From: an uncultured Candidatus Poseidoniales archaeon
GTDB taxonomy: Archaea > Thermoplasmatota > Poseidoniia > Poseidoniales > Thalassarchaeaceae
Direction of reading: 5' to 3'
Assembly (NCBI GenBank): GCA_964016325.1
Contig: CAXHFZ010000001.1
Location: 1-31,508, forward strand
DNA: 31,508 bases
Of the stretch, positions 3,648 to 22,075 are shown piece after piece (positions within the stretch are counted from its first letter, which is position 1; every line of letters begins with the position of its first letter). The position numbers and the translations under genes are program-made. Under the pieces are notes generated by a model. It made no database searches. It saw nothing but the letters and a program-made list of their open reading frames with translations, and was not told where the DNA came from.

Positions 3648-5072
3648 TCAATCAGCGTGTATCTCATTGACATCCAGCCAGAGGACCTCGCATTCTCTAT
3701 CAATTACAGACTTTACAGAGGGGACGGTCCTACCCTCATCAGAGTGGACCAGTTCTTTCACGTAGGTCCCGGCCTCACATCTCAAAGAGAACTGTATTTC
3801 CTGATTATCTACGATCACGTCCGATATAGAGACAATCTTTCTCTTGCGGGTTTTTGCAGCTCTCCGGTGTGAAACTCTTTTTGGAGTCTCTTGCTCCAAA
3901 ACTACTCCTGAGAGAGAGTTGATTGACTCAATTATTTGATCTTCGGGGAGAGCATCTTCAATCTTGAACCTGATAGTGTATGATTTCTCAGAACGTGTCT
4001 CTTTGACCCTACTGACATCCTTCTTATGAGACCACTTTAGAGAGTTTACTTTCACTTTCTCAGGATTGTTTGAGTTTATTTTAGACTCTAGATCTACAAG
4101 GTCTGTTTCTCTTATTTTGGGATTCTTTATCTCCAGAACGAACGGCCTTCCAGAACCCAAGCACCTCACATCGATATCCTCTCTGCCCATTCCGTGAAAG
4201 GACGTATCGAATGCTCCCATCTGTGCTTTTACTGGATCTCCAATAATATCTTGCACTGATTCTCTATACTGCAGACCGGTTCCCTCGCAACTTTCGCAAC
4301 CGTCTCCTCTACCTCTGCAGGACCGGCAGGGCCAGCGAGTTTGTGGTATCCCTCTGGCGAGTTTTTCATACCTACCATAGATGAATACTGGTCTAATATC
4401 CGTATCGACTCTGAGAGTCAAAGCATCCACTGTTACCATTACATCGGGATACTCCTTGACGAATGCGATTTCAGGAATTTTTCTCAGCATTTCTGCTTGT
4501 ATTGCCATGGCGAACGAGGCTTTCAGTGGCTTGGATCCACGCGCACCATGTTTTGTTCTAATCGCATCTTCACTCTGGAGGAGGTCTTTTGGAATATGAA
4601 TCCCTAGTTGCATTGACCTGAATTGGGTATCTTCAAGGGTCTCTATGATCCTCTCAACGATATTACCTACGTCATCAAATAGATTTTCACATAGCGGGCA
4701 CAAATCTGGTATATCAAAATCTGAAAGACTTGAATCCCTTGAGAATGCTTCTTTCCTCAGTGAAAATCCTCCTTCAAAGCCCGAGGATTGGGTTCTTCTT
4801 CCTCCTATTCTATGCAGACAATGGTCACATGCTCCAATCTTGATTACATGAGCGATTCCTAATGGGGCCGGACAGGGAGGGGCGTCCCAGTCAATGGAGT
4901 CTCCTTGCAGATAGAAATCATCACCATCGAACCACTCGTCATCGGTTTCCTCTTCCTTACTCGGCTCACTATTTTCAAGTGATTCAGCCACGCCATAGTC
5001 AGCACTCGCATAAAGAGTCCACTCGTCCTCATCTACACCGTTAGAGGTTTCCTTCGGGTCGTCTACACTCAT
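3648..5072 (-). CDS. pus10: tRNA pseudouridine(54/55) synthase Pus10
   Basis: Catalytic FHGMGREDIDVRCLG-GRPFVLEIKNP, QETPKRVSHRRA, CEAGTYVKELVHSDEGRTVPS, N-terminal CDHC/CPLC and THUMP-like region. Start set at ATG 5072 because GGTGA lies 5 nt upstream. Confidence 0.94.
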   Translation of the reverse strand: MSVDDPKETSNGVDEDEWTLYASADYGVAESLENSEPSKEEETDDEWFDGDDFYLQGDSIDWDAPPCPAPLGIAHVIKIGACDHCLHRIGGRRTQSSGFEGGFSLRKEAFSRDSSLSDFDIPDLCPLCENLFDDVGNIVERIIETLEDTQFRSMQLGIHIPKDLLQSEDAIRTKHGARGSKPLKASFAMAIQAEMLRKIPEIAFVKEYPDVMVTVDALTLRVDTDIRPVFIYGRYEKLARGIPQTRWPCRSCRGRGDGCESCEGTGLQYRESVQDIIGDPVKAQMGAFDTSFHGMGREDIDVRCLGSGRPFVLEIKNPKIRETDLVDLESKINSNNPEKVKVNSLKWSHKKDVSRVKETRSEKSYTIRFKIEDALPEDQIIESINSLSGVVLEQETPKRVSHRRAAKTRKRKIVSISDVIVDNQEIQFSLRCEAGTYVKELVHSDEGRTVPSVKSVIDRECEVLWLDVNEIHAD

Positions 5073-5081
5073 TAAAATCAC

Positions 5082-5114
5082 CAACGAGGAAGGGGGGTAC
5101 CCACATCCTCGTTG
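5082..5114 (-). promoter_or_regulatory. Stem-loop abutting the pus10 ribosome-binding site
   Basis: Perfect 9 bp inverted repeat CAACGAGGA/TCCTCGTTG (5082-5090 and 5106-5114) enclosing GGGTACCC. Confidence 0.5.
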
Positions 5115-5158
5115 CCATTACGGGGTGCCGATGTGTTTTGACATCTTCGTATCGAGAA

Positions 5159-5482
5159 TCATACTTTCTGACCAGATGATTCGGATATCTTTCTAAGATG
5201 TTCGAAGGAATGGATGCCACTTGAGCACCCGGTTGGCCACTCGAATCTTATTGCATAGTTCCCCACCTGTTCTACTTTCGGTTTCACTAGCATCATTCTG
5301 GAGATTTCCTCCTCGAACTCTATCTTAATCTGTTCATTTACCTGTCTAGGCTTACACTTCGCGCATTGGCAATTCTTTCTTACTTCCAAATAATCAAGAT
5401 TGTATGTGTTGTCGTCTGAAAACGCTAGTATACAATACGTGTCCTTTCTTTCAAGTGAGATTAATACCGGAGATTTGTCCAT
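5159..5482 (-). CDS. DUF971 / GBBH-like N-terminal domain protein
   Basis: LRKNCQCAKC...VGNYAIRFEWPTGCSSGIHSFEHLR matches the LR-x2-C-x-CA-x-C ... GNYA ... GIY pattern of the family. Confidence 0.78.
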   Translation of the reverse strand: MDKSPVLISLERKDTYCILAFSDDNTYNLDYLEVRKNCQCAKCKPRQVNEQIKIEFEEEISRMMLVKPKVEQVGNYAIRFEWPTGCSSGIHSFEHLRKISESSGQKV

Positions 5483-5484
5483 AG

Positions 5485-5934
5485 TTAGCCTTCCGAATGA
5501 CTCATCTTGTCCTGAGGGTTTAGGATCACATGCATGAGTAGGCCCACAGGCATTAGCATTACTCCGAAGAAGATGATTAGTCGAGTTTTGCTAATCCCTA
5601 TTTGGTTCTGTAAGGCCTTCCTCCACATCCACCTGGTAGCCATGATATCTCCTGCAACGAAGTGGGACCATGCTAGAACCGTGCCCGATTCGGTTCCAAG
5701 TATCTCTACCATAGTGTCGAGGAAATCAGTAGGATTGCCCGTAACTAGGTCAATCAGACCAGATGGTTCAAGGATGGCGGTGATTAGCCAAACTGCAAGT
5801 GGTCCGATGAATAGGGAGTTCCCTCGCATCCAATTTTTCGTTCTTTCAGATGTTGGCTCAGAAAGCATGAGGAACCAGTAAGGTCCAATCCAGATAGTAG
5901 GAACGATGAACAGGACAGTGTAGATTAACTCCAT
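5485..5934 (-). CDS. ABA4-like (DUF4281) membrane protein
   Basis: About four hydrophobic helices. LAWSHFVAGDIMATRWMW resembles W-x-H-x-L-x-x-D-L-F-x-x-R-W, and FFGVMLMPVGLL resembles the C-terminal motif of the family. Confidence 0.7.
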   Translation of the reverse strand: MELIYTVLFIVPTIWIGPYWFLMLSEPTSERTKNWMRGNSLFIGPLAVWLITAILEPSGLIDLVTGNPTDFLDTMVEILGTESGTVLAWSHFVAGDIMATRWMWRKALQNQIGISKTRLIIFFGVMLMPVGLLMHVILNPQDKMSHSEG

Positions 5935-5960
5935 GTCTATTACTCCTTCGTCTGTTAATT

Positions 5961-7520
5961 TTATGTGGCATTATTGGATATAATACGTGGCTTCTTGATA
6001 TCTTCAAACCAAGTGTCGGTACCGTTCCAGTCAGGTTCGACTCCCATGTCCGCACAGATCAACTTGGCAGAGATTCTCCCACTCTCCAATATCGTTGGTA
6101 GGCCACTTCCCGGATGAGTCCCCCCTCCTACTAGATACAGGTGGTCTAGTTCCTCAAATTTATTCTGTGGCCTTCTCCAGAGCATCTGATCCAGCCCATG
6201 TGCTAAGTTGAATACTGCGCCTTTGTATATGTCACGAGCGGCCCAGTCATCAGGGGTCACTATAGTCTGGGATACTATGTGATCTTTGATGCCTTCGAAG
6301 CCTAATTTTTCCATCTGCTTAAGAATCACATCCATGTAATCGTCTTTGATGTCTTCCCAATTAATTCCCTCATGAGAACTACTAGCGGGAACTAGGACGT
6401 AGATAGTGGAATGTCCCTCTGGGGCCATTGTAGAGTCTGTTACGCAGGCATTCTGGACATATATGGATGGGTCATCCCATGTGACTCTGTTCTCGGTGAC
6501 TTCTTTGAGATTTTTTTGATAGTCTTTAGCCGCATATATCTGATGGTGTGGGGTGTCGTATAATTTATCAATTCCCAGATAAAGCATGTATGTTGAGCAG
6601 GAGTATGACTTCTGGTCGAGTTTCTTGTTGGACCATTTCTTCCTGAGCTTGTCAGGGATTAGTCCCTTCATTCCTGTAGCGAAATCTGCATTCATCACGA
6701 ATTTGTCAGCGGTATACGTTCCACTGTCTGTCCTGGCCCCTATTACCTTCTTGCCTTCGAAAACAAACTCATTTACTGTCTCGTTGAGTATTATTTTAAC
6801 TCCGAGTTCTCTGGCTATATTGGCCATTTTCTGGGTTATTGTTCCTAGTCCTCCTTCGACATGGAATACTCCATGCTCGTACTCTAGATATGCCAAGATT
6901 GTGAAAAGGCTGGGTGCTTGGAAGGGGCTCATTCCAAGGTACTTAGTCTGGAACGACATGGCTAATTGCATTCTCTCATCAGTGAACATCTTGGAGAGAT
7001 CTGAAGATACGCTTCTCCATGGCCTCAATACTTTAGCGACCCTCAGAGCCCTTCTGCTAATGAGATCAGTCGGGCCTCTCCAAGGAGAATTTAGGCAGTT
7101 CTTTGAAAGAGTGAGCTTGGTTCTGTTATCCTCTATGTATCTCCTGAAGCCATTTGCGTTATCCTCCCCACAAAGTTCTCCAATTTGAGAAACCATATCT
7201 TCTAAATCCGTACTGGCGTTTATACTTCCTCCTGCTCCGAATACTAGCCTATAATTTGGATTCAATTCGATTAGCCCTAGCTCTTTCCTGGCATCTAGAC
7301 CGAGAGCCTCAAAGATTTCCTCCGCAATTTCTGGATAATGGAAAAAAGTAGGTCCGTTGTCGTACTTGAAACCATCTTTTTCGAATACCCGTGTTCTACC
7401 TCCGACATCATCTGATTTCTCAAGTATTGTGACATTGATTCCTGCCTTGGCTAGAAGCATTGAGCATGCTAATCCACCCGGTCCCGCGCCAACTACTACT
7501 ACATCACTATGCCCTGCCAT
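5961..7520 (-). CDS. crtI: Phytoene desaturase family (CrtI/CrtN-like) FAD oxidoreductase
   Basis: VVVVGAGPGGL...EK...GGR...DNGPTF, YLGMSPFQAPSLFTIL and YLVGGGTHPGSGLPTILESGRISA. The exact substrate (C40 or C30, or a modified carotenoid) cannot be determined from sequence by eye. Confidence 0.88.
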   Translation of the reverse strand: MAGHSDVVVVGAGPGGLACSMLLAKAGINVTILEKSDDVGGRTRVFEKDGFKYDNGPTFFHYPEIAEEIFEALGLDARKELGLIELNPNYRLVFGAGGSINASTDLEDMVSQIGELCGEDNANGFRRYIEDNRTKLTLSKNCLNSPWRGPTDLISRRALRVAKVLRPWRSVSSDLSKMFTDERMQLAMSFQTKYLGMSPFQAPSLFTILAYLEYEHGVFHVEGGLGTITQKMANIARELGVKIILNETVNEFVFEGKKVIGARTDSGTYTADKFVMNADFATGMKGLIPDKLRKKWSNKKLDQKSYSCSTYMLYLGIDKLYDTPHHQIYAAKDYQKNLKEVTENRVTWDDPSIYVQNACVTDSTMAPEGHSTIYVLVPASSSHEGINWEDIKDDYMDVILKQMEKLGFEGIKDHIVSQTIVTPDDWAARDIYKGAVFNLAHGLDQMLWRRPQNKFEELDHLYLVGGGTHPGSGLPTILESGRISAKLICADMGVEPDWNGTDTWFEDIKKPRIISNNAT

Positions 7521-7524
7521 TATA

Positions 7525-8757
7525 TCACTCCAAATCTAAGCCGGATTTGAACTCATCCAATGAAGCTCTCATCTCGGGAATCAGTTTTACATCTGGATAG
7601 GTCCTAATAACTAGTCCATCCATGTACATAAGTGAGCGTATTATGGGGAATCCCTCTTCCCCATAGTCAGCTCCAGCATTCTCAACTGCAGATCTCACGG
7701 TTTTCATCATCACTTCTGTCAAACTCTGCTGGCCAACACTCAAATTTTCGAAGTCATTGTAGATCAGATGCATATCTTTTTTGAATTGGTTTACTTCATC
7801 TGATCTTGGTCTTCTCTCTGCAAGAGAAATGAGGGATTCAAAGGCCAAGTCTTTGTCATCTGCAGACAAATGATAGAAGAAGTTGAAAAGGGATCTGCTG
7901 ACTTTTCTTGGGGCCTCGCATATCGCTCCGTTGTCAATAAAGACGAAATTTCCATCGGGATCCATTATACAGTTACCCGGATGAAGATCTCCATGGAAAG
8001 TTCCTATCCCGAACATGAAAGCACCATGAATTCTGAATAGCTCAAGAAGATCCTCCCATTCTAAGCTGGAGGACTCAATGCCTTGTTCCAAGGTTTGTCC
8101 TTTAACGAATTCAGAAACTAGGACATGTCTGTTGGAGAGATCTGGATAGTATACCGGGAATCTAAGTCTAGGCATAGGAAAATCACTTGATAGATCTTCC
8201 TTGATTGTACTGAGTCTGGAAGCTCCGTTTATCTCATTTCGTAGATCTAACTCACGGAGTGTATAGTCTTCAACATGCTCTAATAGAGCAATTGGATTTC
8301 CTACCTTTCTTAGTTTTGGGGAGATAACCAAAGCAATTTTGAGCCATCGGCTCATTCTTTTCACATCTCTCTTAAACTTCTTTTCATGATCATCTTTGAT
8401 TATTTTCACGACGACTTCTTCTCCTGATTTCAGTCTTGCTCTGTGTACCTGGCCGACTGATGCGGCGGCCAGAGGCTCTACATCAAACCACGAGATTTCA
8501 TCGTGATACGCATCTGGAGCCTTGTCTTTCAATATCCTAAACACATCTTCCGTTGGTATAGTGGAAGCATTACTGTACAAGGTCTGAAGTTGCTTGCACT
8601 TCTCTAGGCTGATGATGTCCGGTCTAAGAGCAAATATCTGAGCTAGTTTGACCGCGAGTAGTCCCTGACTCTCTATCCATCCCAGATTGGCAGGAGATTT
8701 TCGAGTAACCTGCCTCATGAAGAGTGTGAACTTGAGTAGACGCACAATAATACGCAA
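7525..8757 (-). CDS. ABC1/AarF/UbiB family atypical kinase
   Basis: VKLAQIFALRPD, PLAAASVGQVHRARL-GEEVVVK, ELDLRNE, FHGDLHPGN and FIDNG. Start uncertain (TTG 8757, GTG 8745 or ATG 8719). Confidence 0.87.
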   Translation of the reverse strand: MRIIVRLLKFTLFMRQVTRKSPANLGWIESQGLLAVKLAQIFALRPDIISLEKCKQLQTLYSNASTIPTEDVFRILKDKAPDAYHDEISWFDVEPLAAASVGQVHRARLKSGEEVVVKIIKDDHEKKFKRDVKRMSRWLKIALVISPKLRKVGNPIALLEHVEDYTLRELDLRNEINGASRLSTIKEDLSSDFPMPRLRFPVYYPDLSNRHVLVSEFVKGQTLEQGIESSSLEWEDLLELFRIHGAFMFGIGTFHGDLHPGNCIMDPDGNFVFIDNGAICEAPRKVSRSLFNFFYHLSADDKDLAFESLISLAERRPRSDEVNQFKKDMHLIYNDFENLSVGQQSLTEVMMKTVRSAVENAGADYGEEGFPIIRSLMYMDGLVIRTYPDVKLIPEMRASLDEFKSGLDLE

Positions 8758-8795
8758 GGAACTATGAATATAATGTGATGTATGTATTCTGATGA

Positions 8796-10154
8796 CTAAC
8801 TGTTGAAATTAATATCATATTTCACAGAGTTTTCAGCATTTTCAATCGTTGTCCTTGTAATCTCCACGCTTGAGTCATCAGAGTATCTTGAGAGAAGAGC
8901 TCCCTCGATTATTCCATCGTCCAAGGAGTGTATTGGGAGTCCGCCTGGCTTACTTGACGGGTGCTCTACTAAGATGTGGAATAGGGGATCTATATCGTAG
9001 CTGAGTTGTCCAAGTCCTGCATACTCCCACCAATCCATCATCTCATTTAGAAACTCAATATTTCCCTCAATATTCCTTAAGGAGAATGATAGTTCCTGAC
9101 CAACTCTATTTCCCACCTGTCTGAGAAGATGCTGGACGTCTATTCCGAATGCGGAAAGAGCCTCAATACCACCAGATTCTAGATTTCTTCTAGCATCACT
9201 TATTTCGAGTCCTGAAGCAAGGAACGCATCTGGATTGAATGGCGTATCTCCTTCTGGGATATCATCAGATATCTGAAGAACATCTCTGATTTTCTCGAGG
9301 AATGAGCCACTATCAATAGTTAGCTTCAGAGGGTCTACAATTCTCTCCTCGGTGAACCTTTTTGAGGCTACCTCGTAAGGTATTGCCTCCTCCCATATTG
9401 TATCCAGAAGATTTTTCTGCGATTCTGCGAAAGACTCAGATTCAACTGTCAGAGCTGCGTCATTCTTTCCTCTTCCAACGGGGTTCTCCTCCATACTGAG
9501 GTACTGAACAACCTCAAAGTCGTCTACTAATGCGCTCTGTGCGTCCAAGTCATCAGAGTGACGGATCTCTACTGATTCATGGAGATCGTTGTAGAATCTG
9601 ATAGTCCTTCTTTCGAGCTGTGAAAGTACCCTGACTCTGACTCCTCGGGAGGCCGCATCGTTTACTGCCTGCAATGCACTACTTCTGCACAGATGAAGAA
9701 TACCGAACTTTCCGAGAGTCAAGACAATCTCATCCTGAGCCTCTTCAGCCATCTTTTCGATCCTTTTCATAATGTGGACCCTTTCCTTCAGGACAGCAAA
9801 CTTGGGCTCATCGTCCGAGATTCCTTTCTCAACTGGAGACGAGTACTTTGATCCACTTTGAATATCTTCAAGCCCCTGCTCTATCCTCTTCAGTTGTTCC
9901 TTTCTGATTTCTATCAAGTGAGTGACAGCACTGTCCAGCGGAGGGCTAGAGAATCTCATTGGCCTATCAGCGGTTGTTGTTACTAGTCCTATCCTCTGCA
10001 GTCTCTCGAGCGAGTTGTAAGCATCTAGCCGCGTGGTATCAAGTTCTTTAGCTAGCTCACTAGCCTTGATGTTAGATTTTCTGGACAGTACCGTTAATGC
10101 GTTGATTTCCCTCTCAGAAAGACCGGCATCTGTGAGAATCTGGCTCCATGTCAG
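8796..10154 (-). CDS. TrmB-family transcriptional regulator with C-terminal V4R-like domain; probable CTG start
   Basis: The frame of ORF 8796..9959 stays open 65 codons further upstream and encodes the HTH (TWSQILTDAGLSEREINALTVLSRKSNIKASELAKELDTTRLDAYNSLERLQRIGLVTTTADRP). There is an in-frame TGA just upstream and no ATG/GTG/TTG in that stretch. CTG at 10154 overlaps the upstream stop as CTGA. Confidence 0.82.
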   Translation of the reverse strand: MTWSQILTDAGLSEREINALTVLSRKSNIKASELAKELDTTRLDAYNSLERLQRIGLVTTTADRPMRFSSPPLDSAVTHLIEIRKEQLKRIEQGLEDIQSGSKYSSPVEKGISDDEPKFAVLKERVHIMKRIEKMAEEAQDEIVLTLGKFGILHLCRSSALQAVNDAASRGVRVRVLSQLERRTIRFYNDLHESVEIRHSDDLDAQSALVDDFEVVQYLSMEENPVGRGKNDAALTVESESFAESQKNLLDTIWEEAIPYEVASKRFTEERIVDPLKLTIDSGSFLEKIRDVLQISDDIPEGDTPFNPDAFLASGLEISDARRNLESGGIEALSAFGIDVQHLLRQVGNRVGQELSFSLRNIEGNIEFLNEMMDWWEYAGLGQLSYDIDPLFHILVEHPSSKPGGLPIHSLDDGIIEGALLSRYSDDSSVEITRTTIENAENSVKYDINFNS

Positions 10155-10627
10155 GAGGATCGCCCCCCATCAGTTATTTTGCTGAGTGAGTCTAGAATCC
10201 TTGCAACATGCCTCCTGGGTCTGAAGAGCCAGTCATAGACATGATGGATTGTATTGTCAGGGCCTATAACAAAGGAAGATTTGGCGGGGAAAGCCCCTAG
10301 ATGAACTGGGACTTTGAACATGTCTGCAACCTTTCTATCGGAATCTGATAGAAGGATGAAGGGGAGTTCAAGTTCCTGCTTGAATTCTCTGTGTTGCTGG
10401 ACAGAGTCTTGACTTATTCCGATTACTTCTACCGATGGCTCCAGTGAGCGAAACAGGTCATATTGTTGCTTGAAGTTAAGACATCCTCTTTTGCACGTTG
10501 GAGAGCCAGCCTTAGCATAGAAGAATACCACTTTCCAGGATCCATCCAAGTCACTGAATTTGAATTCCTCACCGTCGCTAGTCTGCAACGAGAAATCTGG
10601 TGCTTTCTGACCTACCATTGATGACAT
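10151..10627 (-). CDS. bcp: Peroxiredoxin BCP/PrxQ-like (AhpC/TSA) protein with non-canonical active-site residues
   Basis: GQKAPDFSL, VVFFYAKAGSPTCKRGC, VIGISQDS...HREF...LPFILLSD. Start set at ATG 10627, after GGAGAG. Confidence 0.82.
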   Translation of the reverse strand: MSSMVGQKAPDFSLQTSDGEEFKFSDLDGSWKVVFFYAKAGSPTCKRGCLNFKQQYDLFRSLEPSVEVIGISQDSVQQHREFKQELELPFILLSDSDRKVADMFKVPVHLGAFPAKSSFVIGPDNTIHHVYDWLFRPRRHVARILDSLSKITDGGRSS

Positions 10628-10658
10628 TGACAATCTCTCCGGTGGCACGAACGGTTTC

Positions 10659-11273
10659 TTATATGTCAAGTATGTGGCCCATTCTCTTACCCTTAGTGGA
10701 TAGATAGTGTATGTTCTCTAGTGAAACGCCTGAGATGTGTTCAATTCTTCTTTCGACGTGAATACCATTGTTTCTGAGACCCTGAATTTTGAGTGGATTG
10801 TTCGTCATTAGCCTTACTCTCTCAACCCCAGCATCCTGGAGCATTTTGGCGGCAATCCCATATTCTCTTGCATCTGCTGGAAGGCCCAGAGCAAGGTTGG
10901 CATCAAGAGTGTCGTACCCTATGTCTTGAAGTGCGTAGGCCTGTATTTTTGAGTGTAGACCTATGCCTCTTCCTTCTTGTCTGAGGTACACTACCGCCCC
11001 GCATCCTTCTTCCTGGATTTTCCTCATCGCGGCTTCCAGTTGCGGACCGCAGTCACACTTCATGGACCCAAATGCGTCCCCTGTAAGACACTCTGAATGT
11101 ATCCTTACCAGAGGAGCCTCACCGTTAGATATGTCTCCTGTGTATAATAACGCGTGCTCTTTCCCGTTGGAGTCTTTGGTAACTCTTACTCTAAAGTTTC
11201 CAAACTCCGTAGGAAGGTAGGCATCTGCTTCAATTTCGATTGGTTCAGCATCTTTCCTGACTTGTATGGTCAT
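10659..11273 (-). CDS. ribA: GTP cyclohydrolase II (monofunctional)
   Basis: LPTEFGNF, VRIHSECLTGDAFGSMKCDCGPQL, YLRQEGRGIGL, LMTNNPLK and YLSTKGKRMGH. The true start is ATG 11273; the 92 extra codons in the ORF track run over the intergenic region and the photolyase start. Confidence 0.95.
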   Translation of the reverse strand: MTIQVRKDAEPIEIEADAYLPTEFGNFRVRVTKDSNGKEHALLYTGDISNGEAPLVRIHSECLTGDAFGSMKCDCGPQLEAAMRKIQEEGCGAVVYLRQEGRGIGLHSKIQAYALQDIGYDTLDANLALGLPADAREYGIAAKMLQDAGVERVRLMTNNPLKIQGLRNNGIHVERRIEHISGVSLENIHYLSTKGKRMGHILDI

Positions 11274-11297
11274 GTTAGTTCTGCGATCACATGAGGT

Positions 11298-11346
11298 TAT
11301 GAATGAGTGTTTGAAATCCAACAGGAAAGAAAACACCGCCTTATAT
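11298..11346. promoter_or_regulatory. Putative back-to-back promoters for ribA (TTCATA, minus strand, 11303-11298) and photolyase (TTATAT, plus strand, 11341-11346)
   Basis: TATA-like hexamers 24 nt upstream of ribA ATG 11273 and 22 nt upstream of photolyase ATG 11369. Positional inference only. Confidence 0.4.
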
Positions 11347-11368
11347 GGTTGAGTGAATGAATATGAAC

Positions 11369-12925
11369 ATGATTGGAGTATCGGGGGGTGTGGTTTGCGT
11401 GTCTTCTCCGAGAGTTCGGAGATTAAATGATGAGTCCATAGACGACTCGGGTGAGTTCGTGCTCTACTGGATGACCTCAGTACGAAGGTATCACTACAAC
11501 TCTGCCATGGACAGGGCAATCGAGTTATGCCAAGAGCTAGGAAAACCACTACTGGTGGTCGAGTGCATTTCTGTCAGACACGAGTGGTCCAGCGAGAGAG
11601 TTCTGACGTTTGTTGCGCAGGGAATGGTAGACAACATTTCCATTTTCTCAGATAATGGAATCACCTACTTGCCATGGATTGAGAATCACCTTGACTCGGG
11701 AGACGGTATGCTCAAGAAACTCTCAACAAAGGCTTGTGCAGTCATAATTGATGATTATCCCACATACCTACCTCGATGGGTCATGGAAAGAGCCAGCAAA
11801 ACGTGTAAGGTAAGCGTCGAAGCTGTGGATTCTAACGGGATAATTCCGATGAGTTACGCTGACAAGGCACACAAAACTGCATACTCTTTCAGAAAGCACG
11901 TGCAGAAGAGTCTGTACGGTGCCCTGTCTACAATTCCCAATGAGAATCCGATGAGTGGAATTAGCTCAGATTTATCTATGGACATGTCTAGATTTGATGA
12001 CATTGTCGAAGAGTTGGATATCGAGTTTCCTCCTCTGGAATGGATCTGGAGAGTTGCTGAGGGAGGTAGTGTTGGCAAGAAGGCCATGGCGCCTTTAACG
12101 ATGGATCATGAGGTGTACGCTGTAGACTCAATGAAGGGAGGATATTTCGAGGCAGTCTCAAGATTGGGGAGATTCCTCGAAAAGAGGTTGCAAAACTATT
12201 CCGAGGGAAGGAATGACGCAGATAATCCGGCAGTTAGTGGGCTATCTCCATGGCTACATTTTGGACATATCTCCAGCTTTAGGATCGTCAAAGAGGTCCT
12301 TGAAAAGGAAAACTGGACCTATGACTCGGTTTGTGTAGAAGACACTGGAAGAGGTTCTAGGTCAGGATGGTGGGGACTATCAGAATCTGCGGAGTCTTTT
12401 CTCGATCAAATTATCACATGGAGAGAGCTAGGATTCAACTTCGCACACTACAGGAGAGACCACAACACGCTAGATTCCATACCAAATTGGGCTAAGGAAA
12501 CTCTCAACGAGCATAGAGATGACGAGCGTGTAAAATATACTTTTGAAGAGATTGAAGGCGCGAAGACCAATGACGAGGTATGGAATTCAGCTCAGAGACA
12601 ATTACTCAGAACTGGACACATGCACAATTACTTGAGAATGCTCTGGGGGAAGAGAATCCTAGAATGGTCACCGGACCCTGAGACAGCAGCAGATTGGATG
12701 ATAAGGATTAATGATAGATGGGCCCTAGACGGTAGAGACCCAAACTCGTACACTGGAATCTTCTGGGTTCTGGGAAGGCATGACAGGGCATGGGGCCCCG
12801 AGAGACCTATCTTTGGAAAGGTTAGGTATATGTCTTCTGCGAATACAAAAAGGAAGCTGAAGCTGGATGGTTATCTCTCCAGATGGGCTGAGGATGCCCC
12901 TCTTCCTAAGAGTCTTCGAAGGTGA
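11369..12925 (+). CDS. phr: Class II CPD DNA photolyase
   Basis: [68 protein letters not shown] and [19 protein letters not shown]. Start uncertain (ATG 11369, or GTG 11399 after GGGGGGTG). Confidence 0.95.
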   Translation: [518 protein letters not shown]

Positions 12926-12929
12926 ATGA

Positions 12930-14327
12930 ATGTACAAGTACACGCATGAAACTGTAGTGGACTCAGATATCAAATCAACCTTCGATTGGTTCGAGCATGA
13001 AGGTTCTTTCAGAAGGCTAATGCCACCTTGGGAGGTAGCCGAGGAAGTCCGTGCAGATGATTCACTAGAGATTGGATCTCAGAGAGTTTTTCGATTTCCA
13101 GCTCCAGGTGCACCATTCCTGAAAATGACTTGGATCGCAGAGCATACTGCCTACGATCCACCTAATCACTTCGCTGATAAGATGGTAAAGGGGCCTTTTT
13201 GGTCGTGGAATCACAATCATGATCTGACTGAGAGTGGAGGTAAAACCACTGTTAGGGACGAAGTTACCTACCAAGTTCCGTTTGGACCTCTTGGGAATCT
13301 AGCAGATAGTATTCTGGGGGGGTGGCTCGTGAAGAGCAGGATATCGAGGATGTTCAAGGCCAGAGAGTTAAGACTTCAGAGAGACATGAAAGAACATGCA
13401 AAATTTTCACAACTTAAGAGGAAGAAAATACTAGTCGCTGGTTCTTCTGGATTAATAGGAACGCAACTAGTTGCATTCCTGGACACGGGTGGGCATGATG
13501 TCTGGAGATTGGTTAGGAGGCCCGCTAAAGAAGGTCTGAAAGAGCTAACTTGGGACCCGACACAGGGATTGATCAATCCTTCCGAGATAGAGGGTTTTGA
13601 TATTGTTATCCACCTTGGTGGTGAAAATATTGGAGAAAAGAGGTGGAGCAAGAAGAGGAAGGAGGCCATAATAGAATCTCGGAGGGACTCCACAATTCTA
13701 CTCTCTGATACTATCAGTAGTCTCAGCAAGAAACCAGAAGCATTCCTTGTAGCCAGTGCTATAGGATTCTATGGAAATAGAGGCGATGAGATCCTCACAG
13801 AAGATAGCCCACAGGGAGAAGGTTTCCTCACGGATACGGTGATAGAATGGGAGTCTTACGCCGAATCAGCTAGAAAGGCTGGAATCCGGGTGATCAACAC
13901 TAGGAATGGGATTGTTCTATCGGCGGCTGGAGGCGCTTTGGAAAGAATGCTCCTCCCATGGAAGTTAGGAGGCGGAGGCCCCCTTGCAGGAGGCAAGCAA
14001 TGGATGTCGTGGATTTCCCTTGATGACGAAATCTATGCCATTCATCATCTGATTATGAACGGAGAGTGCGAGGGTGTTTACAATCTTACTGCCCCTGAGC
14101 CCGTAAGGCAGAAGGTGTTCTCAAAAACTCTGGGAAGAGTTCTTCGCAGGCCCGCTTTCGCTCCGATTCCTGGTTTCTCCATGAAGATTCTTTTCGGTGA
14201 GCTTGCCGGCCCTCTCCTTATAGAAGGGCAAAGAGTACTACCTAGCAGACTTCAGCAGTCTAATTATGAATTCCTCCACAAAGACCTTGAGTCAGCGCTT
14301 AGAGACTCTCTTGGTGTTTGGAGGTAG
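12930..14327 (+). CDS. SRPBCC-domain / TIGR01777-family NAD-dependent epimerase fusion
   Basis: N-terminal START-like region (FDWFEHEGSFRRLMPPW, F-D-MVKGPFWSW-H-H, RDEVTY) followed by ILVAGSSGLIG, HLGGENI...RWS, GGGPLAGGKQWMSWISLDD and GQRVLPSRL. Confidence 0.9.
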   Translation: MYKYTHETVVDSDIKSTFDWFEHEGSFRRLMPPWEVAEEVRADDSLEIGSQRVFRFPAPGAPFLKMTWIAEHTAYDPPNHFADKMVKGPFWSWNHNHDLTESGGKTTVRDEVTYQVPFGPLGNLADSILGGWLVKSRISRMFKARELRLQRDMKEHAKFSQLKRKKILVAGSSGLIGTQLVAFLDTGGHDVWRLVRRPAKEGLKELTWDPTQGLINPSEIEGFDIVIHLGGENIGEKRWSKKRKEAIIESRRDSTILLSDTISSLSKKPEAFLVASAIGFYGNRGDEILTEDSPQGEGFLTDTVIEWESYAESARKAGIRVINTRNGIVLSAAGGALERMLLPWKLGGGGPLAGGKQWMSWISLDDEIYAIHHLIMNGECEGVYNLTAPEPVRQKVFSKTLGRVLRRPAFAPIPGFSMKILFGELAGPLLIEGQRVLPSRLQQSNYEFLHKDLESALRDSLGVWR

Positions 14328-14331
14328 TTTG

Positions 14332-14751
14332 ATGGAGGGCGGCGCCCGAGTAAGGAATATTTCTAACGCAGGAAGAAGAAATAGATTCTACGGTTCGATC
14401 ATATTGTTTTTGCTTGCGATTATCGTGAATATTGTGTATCTAATCGTAGGAAATCCGCCCACGCTGAATCCTGATTATAATCCGACTCTTCTCATCGTGA
14501 CAGCAATCACATTATCTGGTCTAAACATAGCAGGATTTCTAGTACTTATGGAGTCAGCCACTCAAGTGTGTGTTTACCATGGGTTCCTGGGAACACATGA
14601 GTCTTCATCCGGCGCCAAGAAGCACGAAGATGAGTCGGTTGCTCGAGCATGTAGGAGTAAAAGCTGGAGCATAATTTCTCAGTCGACAGTCTTCGGTATT
14701 ATTTTGACAACTATCTCACTTTGGCTACTCTCTAAATTTATGGTCAATTAG
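14332..14751 (+). CDS. Hypothetical membrane protein (about three TM helices, two Cys)
   Basis: ATG 14332 lies 4 nt after the previous stop, with GAGGT upstream. RNIS-x-GRRNR precedes hydrophobic segments. Overlaps the MMPL 3' end convergently by 8 nt. Confidence 0.68.
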   Translation: MEGGARVRNISNAGRRNRFYGSIILFLLAIIVNIVYLIVGNPPTLNPDYNPTLLIVTAITLSGLNIAGFLVLMESATQVCVYHGFLGTHESSSGAKKHEDESVARACRSKSWSIISQSTVFGIILTTISLWLLSKFMVN

Positions 14752-17700
14752 TATTTTTGTGAAGCATTCCGATGAGAGCGGGAGCGATTATCATGCTAGC
14801 AATCAATGACAGTATTATCATAATAGCACAGAATAACCCAAACGTCGAGAAGAATCCCATTTTTGACTGATTAATTACCATGAATCCTGCAAAGTCAGAT
14901 AGGGCGGAGCCGAATAGTGCAAGTCCAGACGCCCCCCCGACCACTGCTACAGATTCCAACTGGGATTTCCCTTCTTCAATCTCCTCCCGATATCTCTCTA
15001 TTAGGTGAATGACATAGTCAACACCGACTCCCAGTGAGATTGCCGCAATGGAAATAGTAACCATATTCAGGCCATATCCAAACAAATCAACAAGCGCATA
15101 CAGCCATATTATCATGATGAAAATTGGAGTTGTCGTTATTCCTGCGTAAATGAATGGCGTTGTTCCGAAGGATAGTGACAAAATTAGTGCGACAAGCATG
15201 AAATGTAATAGGTATTCATTACCAACCAGGGCTAGTGAAATTAATGCGAAAACTATCACATTTAGAAGGATTGATGGCGAGTTTTTTCTAATGTTAGAAA
15301 TATTCTTTTTTATCCTCTGAACGGCATTCCCATTATCTCTGAATCCCCACCAAAGTGTGAGGAAGCAAAGTAGAACTCCCAAGAGAATCGTATCTTGTAA
15401 ATCGTCTTGCATAGAATCAGCCGCTACAAATCTCACAACTGGCTCACCAGTGGGAATGGCCCACGAGACTGGATGTTTTTCATCCGTAAATGCGTTTTCC
15501 AGTGAACCTCTATTCCTAAGTTGACTAACAGATAGATTCTGTAGTGGCTCCATATCTGCCTCTAGTTGAGTTAGAGCCGGCTCTACCAATGCGAATTGTT
15601 CGGGACTGGATATTCCAAACCGAAGCGTGGCTCTTGGATACCTAGGTGAGTCTCCTTCTTCCGTAAGCCATGGCCTATCAAAGTCAAGCTTACCATCAAC
15701 CTGAAGGAATTCTCCGACTATGCTAGGAGATAATGCAGGATATCCCCCACTAGCTGGAACTCCTCTAGTCATCATGAAACCATACAGGAACTTCAGTGAT
15801 TCACTATCATTGGTGGATGGAATGAAAATAAACTCAAAGTCCCTATTTGGGATTACAACAGTTTCGCATCCTATGCCACCGTCGTTCAAATCAAAGTCCC
15901 ACCCTGCCTGCTCAAATGGGGTCTGGTTCCATGCCATAGCAGCTCTGAGATACCACAGCATCTGGTCCACGGCAAGTAACTCAACCTCGCCGTTTGGAGA
16001 CCTGGTAAATTGATTGGGTTCGTCCGGGGTATGAGAGTTCATATTTTCTCTGAGCTCCTCAATAGCGTCCAGAACTCTGGGATTTGTGAGATTGGCTTCA
16101 AGAAGTATGTATGCAGGTTCCCCCTCGTCACTGAATCTCTGATTTATTAGTCCGACTCCTACAGCTAAATCTGACTCTTCCTCAACAAAGTCTTCAACTT
16201 GGAAGTCTCCTTCAAGAGAAGTCATCAGTGGAACTGCGTATGCAGTGACGAGAAGTACGCAGATAATGACTAGCGGGTACAGCTTGAATGATTTAGTTGT
16301 AATAGAGGATAGCCACGATTTTGGGATCATATGAATTTTATCTGGATCTTCATCTTCAAGTCTGTCCCTGCGCTGCAGCCATTTATCGATATCTAGTCTT
16401 GCAAGAGGAACCCATAATCCTGTGAGGAAAAAGGCACACATTACCCCTATTCCTGCCTCTATACCAAACGATCTCAGAGCTGCGATACTAGATGTAAGAT
16501 TTGCCGAAAATGCGACTATTGTGGTCACAGAGGTCAACATGACTGCAAGACCAACCTTGCTAATTGAAACATGGCTAGACTCTTCTATGGTCTTTCCAGA
16601 GCGTCTCTCCTCCTTGTAACGATGAAGGGAGTGCAGACTGTCATCGATCTCTAGTGCCAGTATCAAAATCGGAAGGAGATTGGAGAACTGTGATCTGAAG
16701 ATAAACTCGAAACCTGTTTTTTGTCCGAAAATCATAGCCCATCCAATCAGTCCATACATCCAGAACAGAGAAACAACCAGACTCGTTGAGACTATTGCAA
16801 CATCGGAGATTCTTCGGAGATTAATCCAAAGGAGTCCCACGACAATGAATGCCATGGCGACTAGTAGATATGCGCTGGAAAGTAATTCTCTATTTATTTC
16901 AACATTTATTGACTCAGCAAACATCAGAGAGACAATATGTTCGTCAGTATCCCGAAGATCCTCTTCTATCGAAAGATACAGCCATTCTACTGAGCAGAGT
17001 GGCTGGTTGTTTTCTTCTCTTTCTTGGCAATATTCGAAAGAATATCTTATTGGGTCTGTTACTAGTGTCAGTCCCTCTCTCTTGTAACCGAAGTCTGTGG
17101 TCGCATTCTTCCATGAAAAGGTCCATCCACTTTCTTGCATTTGCTCCCTATCTAAGTTCACTATCAGCCACGCGGAGGAAGCTGACCACCTTCCTCTCTG
17201 CCAGATTTCAGACTCAAGGTTTCCGTCTTCTCCAATCGTGTGATTTACTGGTCCGATCACGGAGCTATTGGGATCTGGAGTAAATGCCCTGTCATTAGAA
17301 AGGAATCTTAGGAATGAGCCATTGCTACTGTTGGCCATCCTGTGGGCTGCTAGGTCTATGTGGTCTTGTGTTACATTTGGATCATCGAACCGCAGACACT
17401 CTAGTATTCCGCAGTCCGTCCAATTTGTCGGTGCTGGATCCATCGATTCCTCTAGATCCAACGTAAGTGCAAGCTTGTATGGGTTGATTCTTGGTTGTGT
17501 GAGAGAAGAGTTCCCGGACATGAACGATCTGAAGTCGGAAGCAAGATCTAACATTCCCACTGCCGGGTCTCCTGAGATTTCTGATGCGATTGGAAGGAAG
17601 AATCTTGATACGTTGTGGTTTCTCAAAGTATCAGCATTGATGTCAATTTCCCTTAATACTGTTAGATTCAGGATTCCTCCCATAGGAGATTCCAGTCCTG

Positions 17701-21737: not shown

Positions 21738-21781
21738 TGAGGGCAAACACTTCTTGAAAAGCTAGGGCTCGATGTGGTGTT

Positions 21782-22075
21782 GTGTCCTTACTTGATTATC
21801 TCTTAGCGCCGAGAGAAGATCACAGGGGTTGGAAAACTCCCAGCGAAGCATCCAGAATACTGTTTGTAATGGTAGTGGGTTCGGTTTCTTACTGGGCTTG
21901 GCCGATTACCGAGGGAAATATAGTGATGTGGGCAGGGACAGTGATGATGGTCTCTACGGCTCTGCTTTCTCTGGGGTGGTGGTTACTATCACTGGCCGCC
22001 AAGAACAGGGCACCCAGAAAATTGACAGCTTCCGTAGAAAAGGTTACGAAAAGACGCCGTAAACACTCATCTTGA
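21782..22075 (+). CDS. Small hypothetical membrane protein (two TM helices, basic C-terminal tail)
   Basis: Fills the gap between two genes. GTG start after GTGGTG. Two hydrophobic stretches, then KVTKRRRKHSS. Confidence 0.62.
   Translation: MSLLDYLLAPREDHRGWKTPSEASRILFVMVVGSVSYWAWPITEGNIVMWAGTVMMVSTALLSLGWWLLSLAAKNRAPRKLTASVEKVTKRRRKHSS

Follow-up and report, generated by a model that had tools for sequence, protein, structure and literature searches.

Poseidoniales (Marine Group II, MGII) are uncultured archaea abundant in the surface ocean, and to our knowledge almost nothing is known about gene regulation in these archaea. In Halobacterium, the Bat regulon comprises bop, brp, crtB1 and blp, which carry an upstream activator sequence and respond to light and oxygen. 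A short conserved element immediately preceding the TATA box joins the rhodopsin and carotenoid/retinal genes of this regulon. Bat, a GAF-PAS-HTH protein, is not related to the regulator described here and the sequence of its element is different; we know of no photolyase, ribA or peroxiredoxin gene in the Bat regulon.

Two archaeal protein groups resemble the regulator described here. TrmB, TrmBL1 and TrmBL2 of Thermococcales have in common with it the TrmB winged helix, a long coiled-coil helix and a PLD-like domain. MsvR of methanogens has a C-terminal V4R-type domain, is encoded beside oxidative-stress genes and is autoregulated. In bacteria, the CarH/LitR (MerR family, B12-dependent) and sigmaE-ChrR systems place photolyase together with carotenoid or lipid-protecting genes under one, often in-cluster, regulator, as is proposed for the locus analysed here. 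The CarH/LitR control of light-induced carotenogenesis has been summarised (PMC6739363), and the photolyase/cryptochrome operons of Vibrio cholerae are induced by blue light via ChrR-sigmaE and a MerR-type protein (PMC5241685). No published description of the cluster or of its promoter box was found in the MGII/Poseidoniales literature on photolyase, peroxiredoxin, diel expression or TrmB/V4R proteins.

The window analysed in this work is a 31,508-nt stretch of DNA from a Poseidoniales archaeon. Judging from sequence comparisons, its divergent gene cluster is on balance probably the local form of a Poseidoniales-wide regulon joining light use, photoprotection and photo-oxidative stress, in which an embedded regulator would act via a promoter box.

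Organization of the divergent gene cluster

In the initial annotation, ten ORFs of the window were proposed to form one divergent light/photo-oxidative-stress module. All ten ORFs were found in place and their families were backed by Pfam, NCBIfam and PDB sequence matches. The divergent spacer was confirmed to be 95 nt long (11274-11368), and so were the gaps of -4 to 38 nt in the left arm and of 4 nt in the right arm. The description of the left arm as a seven-gene unit held for its genes and gaps but not for its end, since same-strand genes (Pus10, L21e, RpoF, DUF655 and KsgA) continue beyond DUF971. The features are as follows:

5159-5482, minus strand: DUF971 / GBBH-like_N protein (Pfam PF06155, E 6e-15), at the end of the ABC1 unit in this genus
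5485-5934, minus strand: ABA4-like (DUF4281) membrane protein (Pfam PF14108, E 1.9e-16)
5961-7520, minus strand: CrtI-family phytoene desaturase (TIGR02734, 466 bits, cut-off 238)
7525-8745 (TTG ORF to 8757), minus strand: ABC1/UbiB atypical kinase (PF03109, E 2.6e-43)
8766-8786, minus strand: variant promoter box of the ABC1-CrtI-ABA4-DUF971 unit (ATACAT-CACA-TTATAT)
8796-10154 (about), minus strand: TrmB-like regulator of 452 aa (PF01978), with a CTG start overlapping the Prx stop
10151-10627, minus strand: BCP/PrxQ-type peroxiredoxin, Prx (PF00578, E 1.2e-31)
10659-11273, minus strand: predicted accessory GTP cyclohydrolase II, RibA (TIGR00505, 238.8 bits, cut-off 205.85)
11295-11315, minus strand: ribA-unit promoter box (TTCAAACACTCATTCATAACC; 26.5 bits)
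11328-11348, plus strand: phr-unit promoter box (AGAAAACACCGCCTTATATGG; 20.3 bits)
11369-12925, plus strand: predicted class II CPD photolyase, Phr (PDB 2xry, M. mazei class II, E 3.8e-67)
12930-14327, plus strand: fusion of SRPBCC and TIGR01777 (YfcH/SDR39U1) NAD-binding domains (TIGR01777, 305 bits, cut-off 207)
14332-14751, plus strand: small membrane ORF of 139 aa, without a Pfam match, in this genus only
21782-22075, plus strand: candidate outlying member, a 97-aa membrane ORF without a Pfam match, preceded by a weak box (21742-21762, matrix score 12.5)

Residues 11-507 of Phr match the class II structures 2xry, 8oet and 5o8d (E 1e-66 to 1e-68) as well as 3umv (E 1e-57), with 2xry and 8oet (E 4e-68) matched over the whole length; the score against TIGR00591 was 363 bits, under the cut-off of 550. 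By this full-length similarity to solved enzymes, the product of 11369-12925 is predicted to be a class II CPD photolyase. The product of 10659-11273, which exceeds the equivalog cut-off, is likewise predicted to be GTP cyclohydrolase II. The SRPBCC-TIGR01777 protein was matched by PDB 3oh8 over its full length (E 8e-60). Profile searches revealed no photoreceptor, MerR, B12-binding, LOV or anti-sigma domains in the ten proteins, and no riboswitch or other Rfam element was found in 4500-15500. A scan for bacterial sigma-70 promoters and terminators was set aside as not relevant to an archaeon.

The ATG of phr (11369) aligns with ATG or GTG of its orthologues, and two other start codons were corrected. 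The regulator ORF had been listed from ATG 9959, upstream of which the TrmB helix-turn-helix is encoded; when the ORF was read from upstream of this ATG, PF01978 matched residues 11-72 with 35.7 bits (cut-off 25.6). In the alignment, the codon equivalent to CTG 10154-10152 is an ATG, TTG or GTG start in all regulator orthologues, and the predicted start of the regulator is CTG 10154 rather than ATG 9959. For ABC1, the most likely start judged by alignment and promoter spacing is GTG 8745, located 41 nt from the start of the variant box; the orthologue alignments start at residue 4-5 of the TTG ORF.

Conservation of the cluster across Poseidoniales

Gene order was surveyed at 80 Poseidoniales loci from different species, with each count given over the loci assessable for that gene. 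Of the proposed ten-gene module, a five-gene core is conserved order-wide; a fixed ten-gene unit is not, the ten-gene form being specific to the genus. On one arm of the core, phr is followed by SRPBCC-TIGR01777; on the other arm, ribA is followed by prx and the gene of the TrmB-like regulator. This core is present in both families. Its order and orientation were kept in 53-76 of 59-76 assessable loci, an arrangement far beyond chance. The tightest pair was that of Prx and the regulator, adjoining each other in 76/76 loci, while RibA was in place in 64/74, Phr in 54/64 and SRPBCC-TIGR01777 in 53/59 loci. A tally from presence tables showed that about 117 of 131 Phr-bearing genomes encode the regulator orthologue within ~3.3 kb on the same contig.

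The remaining genes are linked to the core to different extents. ABC1 (39/67 assessable loci), CrtI and ABA4 are variable members with their own box-type promoter. ABA4 was in place in 14/61 loci and at most 10 kb away in 25/61, and in other lineages it ends a crtB-crtI-X-ABA4 operon under box control. DUF971 (12/59) and the 139-aa membrane ORF (9/58) are linked no better than the housekeeping neighbour Pus10 (12/50), and membership of DUF971 in the regulon beyond the genus is not supported.

A promoter box shared by the core units

A motif check of the 11274-11368 and 8758-8795 regions, recommended in the initial annotation, revealed RAACAS-N4-TNATAW on both arms of the spacer and a variant box before ABC1. 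In both core promoters, the box starts ~41 nt upstream of the start codon and is fused to the TATA position; the mRNAs would therefore be leaderless. The generic promoter box of the genome, deduced from ~590 first-gene upstream regions, is TTSAAR at -29. The possibility that AAACAC is the ordinary BRE of this organism was rejected, as the same regions showed no AAACA enrichment.

The ribA box is the best matrix match in the 1.38-Mb genome (26.5 bits) and the phr box is the second (20.3 bits). The former is kept in all lineages, ~41 nt from the ATG, and the latter across the order, 41 nt from the position of ATG 11369. The boxes on both sides of the spacer are conserved down to 55% regulator identity and the 18-nt stretch between them diverges; two loci (L056 and L059) carry a 44-nt insertion between the boxes. 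One palindromic operator, GTGTTT-N18-AAACAC, is unlikely to be essential because of these insertions and because single promoters do not have the second half-site.

A matrix built from the core sites gave 142 matches of at least 15 bits in 1.29 Mb of loci, compared with 2 for the reversed and 2 for the shuffled control. Promoter geometry was found for 135 matches, all of them before nine families: RibA, Phr, CrtI, CrtB, ABC1, Prx, Nudix, fasciclin and SRPBCC. Families not used for training were represented among these geometry-filtered matches by CrtB (7), CrtI (6), ABC1 (5), fasciclin (5) and Nudix (3). Where crtI forms a separate unit in other genomes (6 loci), the box lies upstream of it. 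The same geometry was observed before a Nudix gene, a fasciclin-halocyanin gene, DUF2892 and DUF523-DUF1722, and the box was not found upstream of housekeeping genes. In this genome, crtB (contig C89) has no box and seems to be located inside another operon. In a Poseidoniaceae genome (G056), a homologue of the 97-aa membrane ORF is preceded by a box at 41 nt.

The DUF523-DUF1722 genes of the box set are YbgA-like; in E. coli, ybgA is co-transcribed with phr.

The variant box before ABC1 has a 16-nt core (ATACAT-N4-TTATAT) which is invariant within the genus, its flanks being divergent; at the homologous position, the box of the next genus (L012) is canonical. The variant box belongs to the 7 matches in the genome that passed the geometry filter, with 0 in the reversed control.

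These data agree with the proposed shared control of the two arms, which have a common promoter element conserved order-wide and unlike the generic box. There is strong sequence support for a shared control of the core units through this specific cis element. Gene order inherited for historical reasons, with ten genes juxtaposed and no common control, is very improbable as an explanation of the cluster and for the core is already contradicted: in several genomes, the box precedes genes that are not homologous and lie at unlinked positions, with controls near zero. Such an origin would suit the continuation of the left arm into same-strand housekeeping genes and the conservation of DUF971 and the membrane ORF within the genus only.

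No second inverted half-site was present at single box promoters, the box is asymmetric and overlaps the core promoter, and in L056 and L059 the two boxes are separated by the 44-nt insertion. Dimeric proteins of TrmB type do not usually act at such sites, and the pattern would also fit promoters of a special TFB/TBP class. In that case, the box would be read by the second, divergent TFB, by a variant of TBP or by an unlinked factor, and the TrmB-like protein would have a narrower role, e.g., at the Prx operon. The box indeed lies exactly at the BRE/TATA position, with its TATA-like part included, and a divergent second TFB is encoded in every genome checked. However, this TFB is also present in cluster-less genomes, where the box is at or below the control level. 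The regulator, claimed earlier to be embedded in the cluster, does belong, in nearly all genomes, to an operon driven by the box, and its distribution follows that of the cluster; paralogous Prx-regulator pairs are box-bearing too. A special promoter class is accordingly regarded as distinctly unlikely. Whole-genome searches gave 42 matches in 8 cluster-bearing genomes (control 19) and 3 in 5 cluster-less genomes (control 9). This co-distribution of box and regulator is confounded, since cluster-less genomes lack the very genes that bear the box.

Domain architecture of the TrmB-like regulator

The regulator comprises a TrmB helix-turn-helix, a coiled coil, a PLD-like domain and a V4R/H-NOX-like C-terminal domain. 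Foldseek searches with its AlphaFold model (pLDDT 78.6) identified TrmBL2 (5bpd, E 1.9e-13) and TrmB (3qph, E 1.4e-9), as well as Nuc/PLD folds at TM 0.64-0.75 by target. According to the model, the protein would have the coiled-coil helix and PLD-like effector core of TrmB type. Residues 336-438 were matched by the NCBIfam MsvR model with E 1.6e-7 and 31 bits, far under the cut-off of 220. For the C-terminal domain, Foldseek indicated the V4R protein MJ1460 (2osd, E 1e-3, TM 0.39), with H-NOX and PoxR sensors at similar values (E about 1e-3). Pfam PF02830 gave no match at E of at most 0.1 and the Foldseek TM-scores were about 0.4-0.5; the V4R assignment of the modelled domain is weak. Cysteine is absent from residues 300-452, both in the regulator and in the orthologues aligned with it, which makes a thiol switch unlikely. 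A search of 100 Thermoplasmatota genomes from outside the order did not recover the full-length regulator.

Genome distribution, expression and the nature of the signal

Among rhodopsin-bearing genomes, Phr was present in 34/35 and the regulator orthologue in 33/35; the corresponding numbers for rhodopsin-less genomes were 4/26 and 5/26. This distribution of the cluster agrees with the photolyase reported in all rhodopsin-bearing genera (PMC6461757). The proteorhodopsin gene itself carries the box in some genomes, with scores of 23.3, 20.8 and 17.4 in G027, G008 and G040, respectively; no box was found for the proteorhodopsin of this genome and likewise in ~22/30 genomes checked.

Cluster-bearing genomes have two ribA genes and cluster-less genomes have one. 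The cluster ribA is an accessory copy, gained and lost with the cluster, and the claim that a flavin-supply gene is part of the unit was substantiated by its place in the core and by this extra copy occurring only with the cluster. Two TFB genes, the second one divergent, were present in every genome checked irrespective of the cluster, and an alternative TFB tracking the cluster was rejected on this basis. A supply of the F0 (8-HDF) antenna via CofH was also rejected; CofH-like matches were below the cut-off, both with and without the cluster, and the proteins concerned are probably menaquinone (futalosine-pathway) enzymes.

Metatranscriptome contigs cover all genes of the cluster and span the Prx/regulator (9519-10606) and Phr/SRPBCC (12772-13339) junctions; these are assembled contigs which may include DNA. 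The RNA depth of the 139-aa membrane ORF was low. In a published dark incubation, the cluster ribA (gene 717 of the O1 MAG) was unchanged (log2 +0.33, not significant), the coverage of Phr, Prx and the regulator was too poor to be assessed, and only crtD decreased (PMC9723583); for the core genes, this data set is uninformative.

The regulon could answer general oxidative or peroxide stress or the redox state, in the manner of MsvR, OxyR or PerR, instead of light, with the rhodopsin link reflecting an oxygenated sunlit habitat. In agreement with this, Prx and the regulator form the tightest pair (76/76 loci), lineages lacking photolyase still have Prx-regulator pairs and more distant regulator paralogues (35-37% identity), a match to the MsvR model was obtained for the C-terminal domain, and no photoreceptor domain is encoded in the cluster. 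Nevertheless, light-specific members dominate (photolyase and carotenoid genes, plus proteorhodopsin in some genomes), cysteine is absent from the C-terminal domain, in contrast to the redox-sensing V4R of MsvR, and the box-bearing genes observed did not include catalase, SOD or rubrerythrin. A purely general stress regulon is therefore considered rather unlikely.

Proposed mode of regulation

In the preferred reading, that of a light-related regulon controlled by the embedded regulator, this protein would bind the AAACAS element next to or overlapping BRE/TATA, setting the transcription of all box-bearing units, and would be autoregulated. In the window, the abc1-crtI-aba4-duf971 unit, downstream of the regulator, would be controlled through the variant box. 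The C-terminal V4R/H-NOX-like pocket may sense a ligand, small and hydrophobic or redox-related, that is formed under light, such as a photo-oxidation by-product, or a chromophore or its precursor. As no photoreceptor domain is present, the protein would respond to this ligand and would not capture photons itself. Photolyase would then increase and the flavoenzymes Phr and CrtI would receive additional flavin precursor, accompanied by peroxide removal and the synthesis of carotenoids, possibly including a retinal precursor.

A more far-reaching version, which we put forward tentatively, is that the TrmB/V4R-like protein represents a novel kind of archaeal transcription factor, restricted to Poseidoniales and responsive to light/photo-oxidation, acting via AAACAS as a master switch of photoheterotrophy, with the pocket sensing a tetrapyrrole, carotenoid-derived or lipid-oxidation ligand. 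Such a switch would jointly control photolyase, the accessory flavin pathway, peroxide removal, carotenoid/retinal precursors and, in some lineages, proteorhodopsin.

The analysis defines a cis element, points to a candidate regulator whose domain architecture is new, and predicts a gene set (phr, accessory ribA, prx, crtB, crtI, abc1, DUF2892, DUF523-DUF1722 and sometimes proteorhodopsin); in presence or absence of the cluster, lineages with rhodopsin contrast clearly with those lacking it. How these archaea respond to light therefore becomes directly testable.

Comparison with known systems

In relation to the TrmB family, the regulator described here carries an additional C-terminal domain (~150 aa), which is conserved, has a predicted V4R/H-NOX-like fold and replaces the sugar-binding subdomain. 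The candidate site is not a TGM-type palindrome and the targets differ, no sugar metabolism genes being found among the neighbours or the box-bearing genes. MsvR differs from it in the DNA-binding domain, and the V4R-like domain found here does not possess the redox-switch cysteines of MsvR. In comparison with the Bat regulon, proteorhodopsin is box-bearing in a minority of Poseidoniales genomes only.

The resemblance to CarH/LitR is functional only, as the MerR, B12-binding, LOV and anti-sigma parts of the CarH/LitR and sigmaE-ChrR systems are absent here. In contrast to bacterial light regulons, control would rest with an archaeal candidate regulator of TrmB type that ends in a V4R/H-NOX-like domain, the cis element forms one unit with the archaeal TATA/BRE of leaderless promoters, and the core includes RibA and Prx. 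In archaea, the proposed regulon would be the counterpart of the CarH/LitR and sigmaE-ChrR photoprotection regulons of bacteria, built from components unrelated to theirs.

Gene Content and Start Codons of the Divergent Cluster

The source MAG was archaeal, 1.38 Mb in 265 contigs and 83% complete, and the nearest public relatives of the window were Poseidoniales (Marine Group II) MAGs. The ten ORFs named in the initial annotation at 5159–14751 were all present, namely RibA, Prx, the TrmB-like regulator, ABC1, CrtI, ABA4 and DUF971 in the left arm and the class II photolyase (Phr), SRPBCC-TIGR01777 and a membrane ORF in the right arm. Their families were backed by Pfam, NCBIfam and PDB sequence matches, and the 95 nt spacer and the gene gaps agreed with the earlier description.

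Elements of the cluster
8766–8786 (−), variant box before ABC1
8796–10154 (−), regulator, 452 aa
10151–10627 (−), Prx, two cysteines spaced C-x3-C (SPTCKRGC)
11274–11368, spacer between ribA and phr
11295–11315 (−), box of ribA
11328–11348 (+), box of phr

In classical BCP proteins the cysteines are spaced C-x4-C. Reading upstream from ATG 9959, the first in the regulator ORF, the frame stayed open for 65 more codons; they included the TrmB helix-turn-helix, with no ATG, GTG or TTG 5′ of that domain. The protein start M-x-W-x-Q-I/V-L was found in every regulator orthologue with ATG or GTG as the start codon, or TTG in the near relatives at loci L007 and L010–L012, the corresponding codon in the window and its nearest relatives being CTG 10154–10152 (−). 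Since the orthologue starts align to it, this CTG, which overlaps the Prx stop (TC-CTGA), is the predicted start of the regulator. The ABC1 ORF was listed with a TTG start at 8757 (−); orthologue alignments and a 41-nt promoter geometry indicate that GTG 8745 (−) is most likely the true one. The left arm ran on into the same-strand genes Pus10, L21e, RpoF, DUF655 and KsgA, so its outer boundary is arbitrary. Past the rpoF–ksgA block, a 365-aa ORF (175–1272 (−)) had no Pfam match.

Conservation of a Five-Gene Core across Poseidoniales

The synteny survey used 80 loci from different Poseidoniales species of both families, anchored on the regulator, whose identity ranged between 99% and 55%; on these loci the window proteins were located by tblastn.

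Loci with the gene in window position and orientation, among those with a contig long enough to judge
Prx, 76/76
RibA, 64/74
Phr, 54/64
SRPBCC-TIGR01777, 53/59
ABC1, 39/67
CrtI, 22/62 (within 10 kb, 34/62)
ABA4, 14/61 (within 10 kb, 25/61)
DUF971, 12/59
Pus10 (housekeeping neighbour), 12/50
Membrane ORF, 9/58

The initial annotation had proposed a single ten-gene module; its divergent core of five genes (SRPBCC-TIGR01777 and Phr facing RibA, Prx and the regulator) was kept order-wide, and by these counts the full ten-gene layout was restricted to the genus of the window. ABC1 and the carotenoid genes often lie near the core, though not at a fixed place. A class II photolyase orthologue was present in 131 of the 201 genomes sampled, all with a completeness of 70% or more, and a hand count from the tables placed a regulator orthologue within about 3.3 kb of Phr on the same contig in about 117 of these; most of the remaining ones were interrupted at contig ends.

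In the lineage of L013, L014 and genome G169, no Phr lay between the SRPBCC gene and RibA, Phr being on another contig and the box standing directly before the SRPBCC gene. At the Poseidoniaceae loci L066, L068, L080 and L154 a box-driven Nudix hydrolase gene was located upstream of Phr, which accounts for the Phr–RibA gap of about 550 nt in this family. At L036 (8324–16879), ABC1 was followed by genes for PNP oxidase, SDR, FAD amine oxidase, a 278-aa unknown protein, HhH-GPD glycosylase and a Rieske protein, and beyond them lay a convergent box-driven operon, crtB-crtI-(227-aa unknown)-ABA4. The SDR and amine oxidase pair recalls genes of bacterial singlet-oxygen regulons.

A Shared Promoter Box

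A motif search in the intergenic regions of orthologous clusters had been suggested. Phr/RibA spacers of 47 loci contained two conserved blocks, one per side, each of the form RAACAS-N4-TNATAW and beginning 41–45 nt 5′ of the start codon, so the mRNAs would be leaderless. The approximately 18 nt separating the two boxes diverged from genus to genus. The other intergenic region named for the motif search, 8758–8795, contained a genus-invariant sequence before ABC1 (ATACAT-CACA-TTATAT), a variant rather than the canonical box, which occurred at the homologous place in the next genus.

The possibility that RAACAS belongs to the ordinary promoter of the organism was ruled out, as in approximately 590 first-gene upstream regions of the window's genome (G000) a TTSAAR box was found, with its peak at −29, whereas AAACA gave no signal. 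Generic promoters of G000 seem to use TTSAAR about 29 nt before ATG, which implies that most mRNAs are leaderless. Pooling all genes brought out an SD-like GG signal at −8/−9.

With a weight matrix trained on 97 Phr and RibA sites, the two window sites ranked 1 and 2 in the whole genome (26.5 and 20.3 bits). In the 80 loci (1.29 Mb), 142 matches of at least 15 bits were obtained versus 2 in the reversed and 2 in the shuffled controls. Promoter geometry (a start codon 34–49 nt downstream that opens an ORF of 80 aa or more) was observed for 135 of them, all within nine gene families.

Box matches with promoter geometry
RibA, 58
Phr, 48
CrtB, 7
CrtI, 6
ABC1, 5
Fasciclin-halocyanin, 5
Nudix, 3
Prx, 2 (four more sites at about 95 nt)
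SRPBCC, 1

The CrtB, CrtI, ABC1, fasciclin and Nudix sites were outside the training set and their genes are mutually non-homologous, so shared descent cannot explain the matches.

Box Promoters in Whole Genomes

In G000, a relaxed pattern with the geometry filter gave 7 sites versus 0 in the reversed control, located before Phr, RibA, ABC1, one doubtful ORF and three genes elsewhere in the genome (contigs C25, C54 and C227):

C25:953–1224 (−), DUF2892/YgaP-like 77-aa membrane protein
C54, about 1163 (−), 167-aa membrane protein
C227:1287–1960 (+), fasciclin protein

The first two were box-preceded in other genomes too. The strict pattern AAACASNNNNTNATAW occurred 42 times in eight cluster-bearing genomes (backwards control 19) and 3 times in five genomes without the cluster (control 9). 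Genes recurring 3′ of the box encoded RibA, Phr, DUF2892/YgaP-like, DUF523-DUF1722 (YbgA-like), a 79-aa membrane protein, a PKD protein, Nudix, MMPL and ABC1. In the window, a weak box (12.5 bits) preceded a 97-aa membrane ORF without a Pfam match (21742–22075 (+)), whose homologue in a Poseidoniaceae genome (L140) had a box 41 nt upstream. At L133, in genome G045 lacking the cluster and any Phr or regulator orthologue, a polyprenyl (GGPP-type) synthase-like gene had a 17.5-bit match 51 nt upstream, which may be due to chance or a relic.

Proteorhodopsin was preceded by the box in one complete genome, G027 (23.3 bits, 41 nt 5′ of ATG). Among 30 rhodopsin loci the box was strong in 3, weak in 4 and absent from the rest, including the rhodopsin gene of the window's genome; proteorhodopsin is therefore a lineage-specific member.

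Association with Rhodopsin and an Accessory ribA

Among genomes at least 85% complete, the 35 with a rhodopsin gene included 34 with class II Phr and 33 with the regulator orthologue, the respective numbers for the 26 without rhodopsin being 4 and 5; no P-value was attached because relatives are non-independent and MAGs incomplete. Within several genera (g1, g5, g6 and g8), some genomes had all three genes and others none. In agreement with this pattern, photolyase has been described as following proteorhodopsin among MGII genomes (PMC6461757, PMC10480650).

Cluster-bearing genomes carried, besides the ribA of the cluster, one further ribA that was 55–57% identical to it (56% in G000, C214:291–857 (−)). 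Only this further type was found in genomes without the cluster, which ties the accessory copy to the module.

Transcripts of the Cluster

Four marine metatranscriptomes yielded contigs 92–99% identical to the window and covering all parts of the cluster; being assemblies, these contigs give neither strand nor sampling hour, and they could include DNA carry-over. Depth was highest at RibA, Prx and Phr and dropped in the spacer. One contig (9519–10606) spanned Prx and the regulator and another (12772–13339) Phr and the SRPBCC gene. The same cluster forms genes 715–719 of the O1 MAG, in which dark incubation left the cluster ribA (gene 717) unchanged and lowered only crtD, coverage being too low to judge the other core genes (Damashek et al., PMC9723583).

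The Regulator and the Proposed Regulon

The predicted structure of the regulator (pLDDT 78.6) matched TrmBL2 and TrmB across the helix-turn-helix, coiled coil and PLD-like domain. The C-terminal domain, which is conserved and about 150 aa long, aligned with the V4R portion of the MsvR model (E 1.6e-7), with no match to Pfam V4R; modelled alone, it resembled the V4R protein MJ1460, H-NOX and the PoxR phenol-sensor domain (E about 1e-3, TM 0.4–0.5). The domain had invariant His, Trp, Glu, Asp and Arg and no cysteine. Full-length relatives were found only in Poseidoniales, six of 100 other Thermoplasmatota genomes giving weak matches that covered the TrmB part alone. Two further forms were recorded across loci L054, L055, L057, L058, L061 and L064 and genomes G002, G005, G017, G037 and others: Prx–regulator pairs that lacked Phr and RibA and preceded a box-driven fasciclin-halocyanin gene, and a more distant regulator paralogue (35–37% identity), which occurred in genera lacking photolyase and, in some Poseidoniaceae, as an additional copy.

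On balance, we favour the reading that the cluster and the box genes form a regulon that links light use with photoprotection and photo-oxidative stress. The TrmB/V4R-like protein, which would itself be autoregulated, would act at AAACAS, next to the TATA box, and would respond to a small ligand made in the light. The asymmetry of the box, with no second half-site at single promoters, counts against this protein as its reader, and the main alternative is that another factor or a divergent second TFB recognizes it; the second TFB, however, is present also where the box is missing. As to the signal, the chief competitor of light is general oxidative stress, to which the universal Prx–regulator pairing points, whereas the light-specific membership of the regulon and the sensor domain devoid of cysteines argue against it.

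Searches of open full-text literature recovered MGII photolyase and rhodopsin distributions but no account of the cluster, promoter box or regulator. The haloarchaeal Bat regulon is functionally similar to the Poseidoniales cluster. A functional likeness also links the cluster to the bacterial CarH/LitR and sigmaE–ChrR regulons (PMC6739363, PMC5241685). The Poseidoniales cluster differs from CarH/LitR, sigmaE–ChrR and Bat, however, in being built of unrelated parts.
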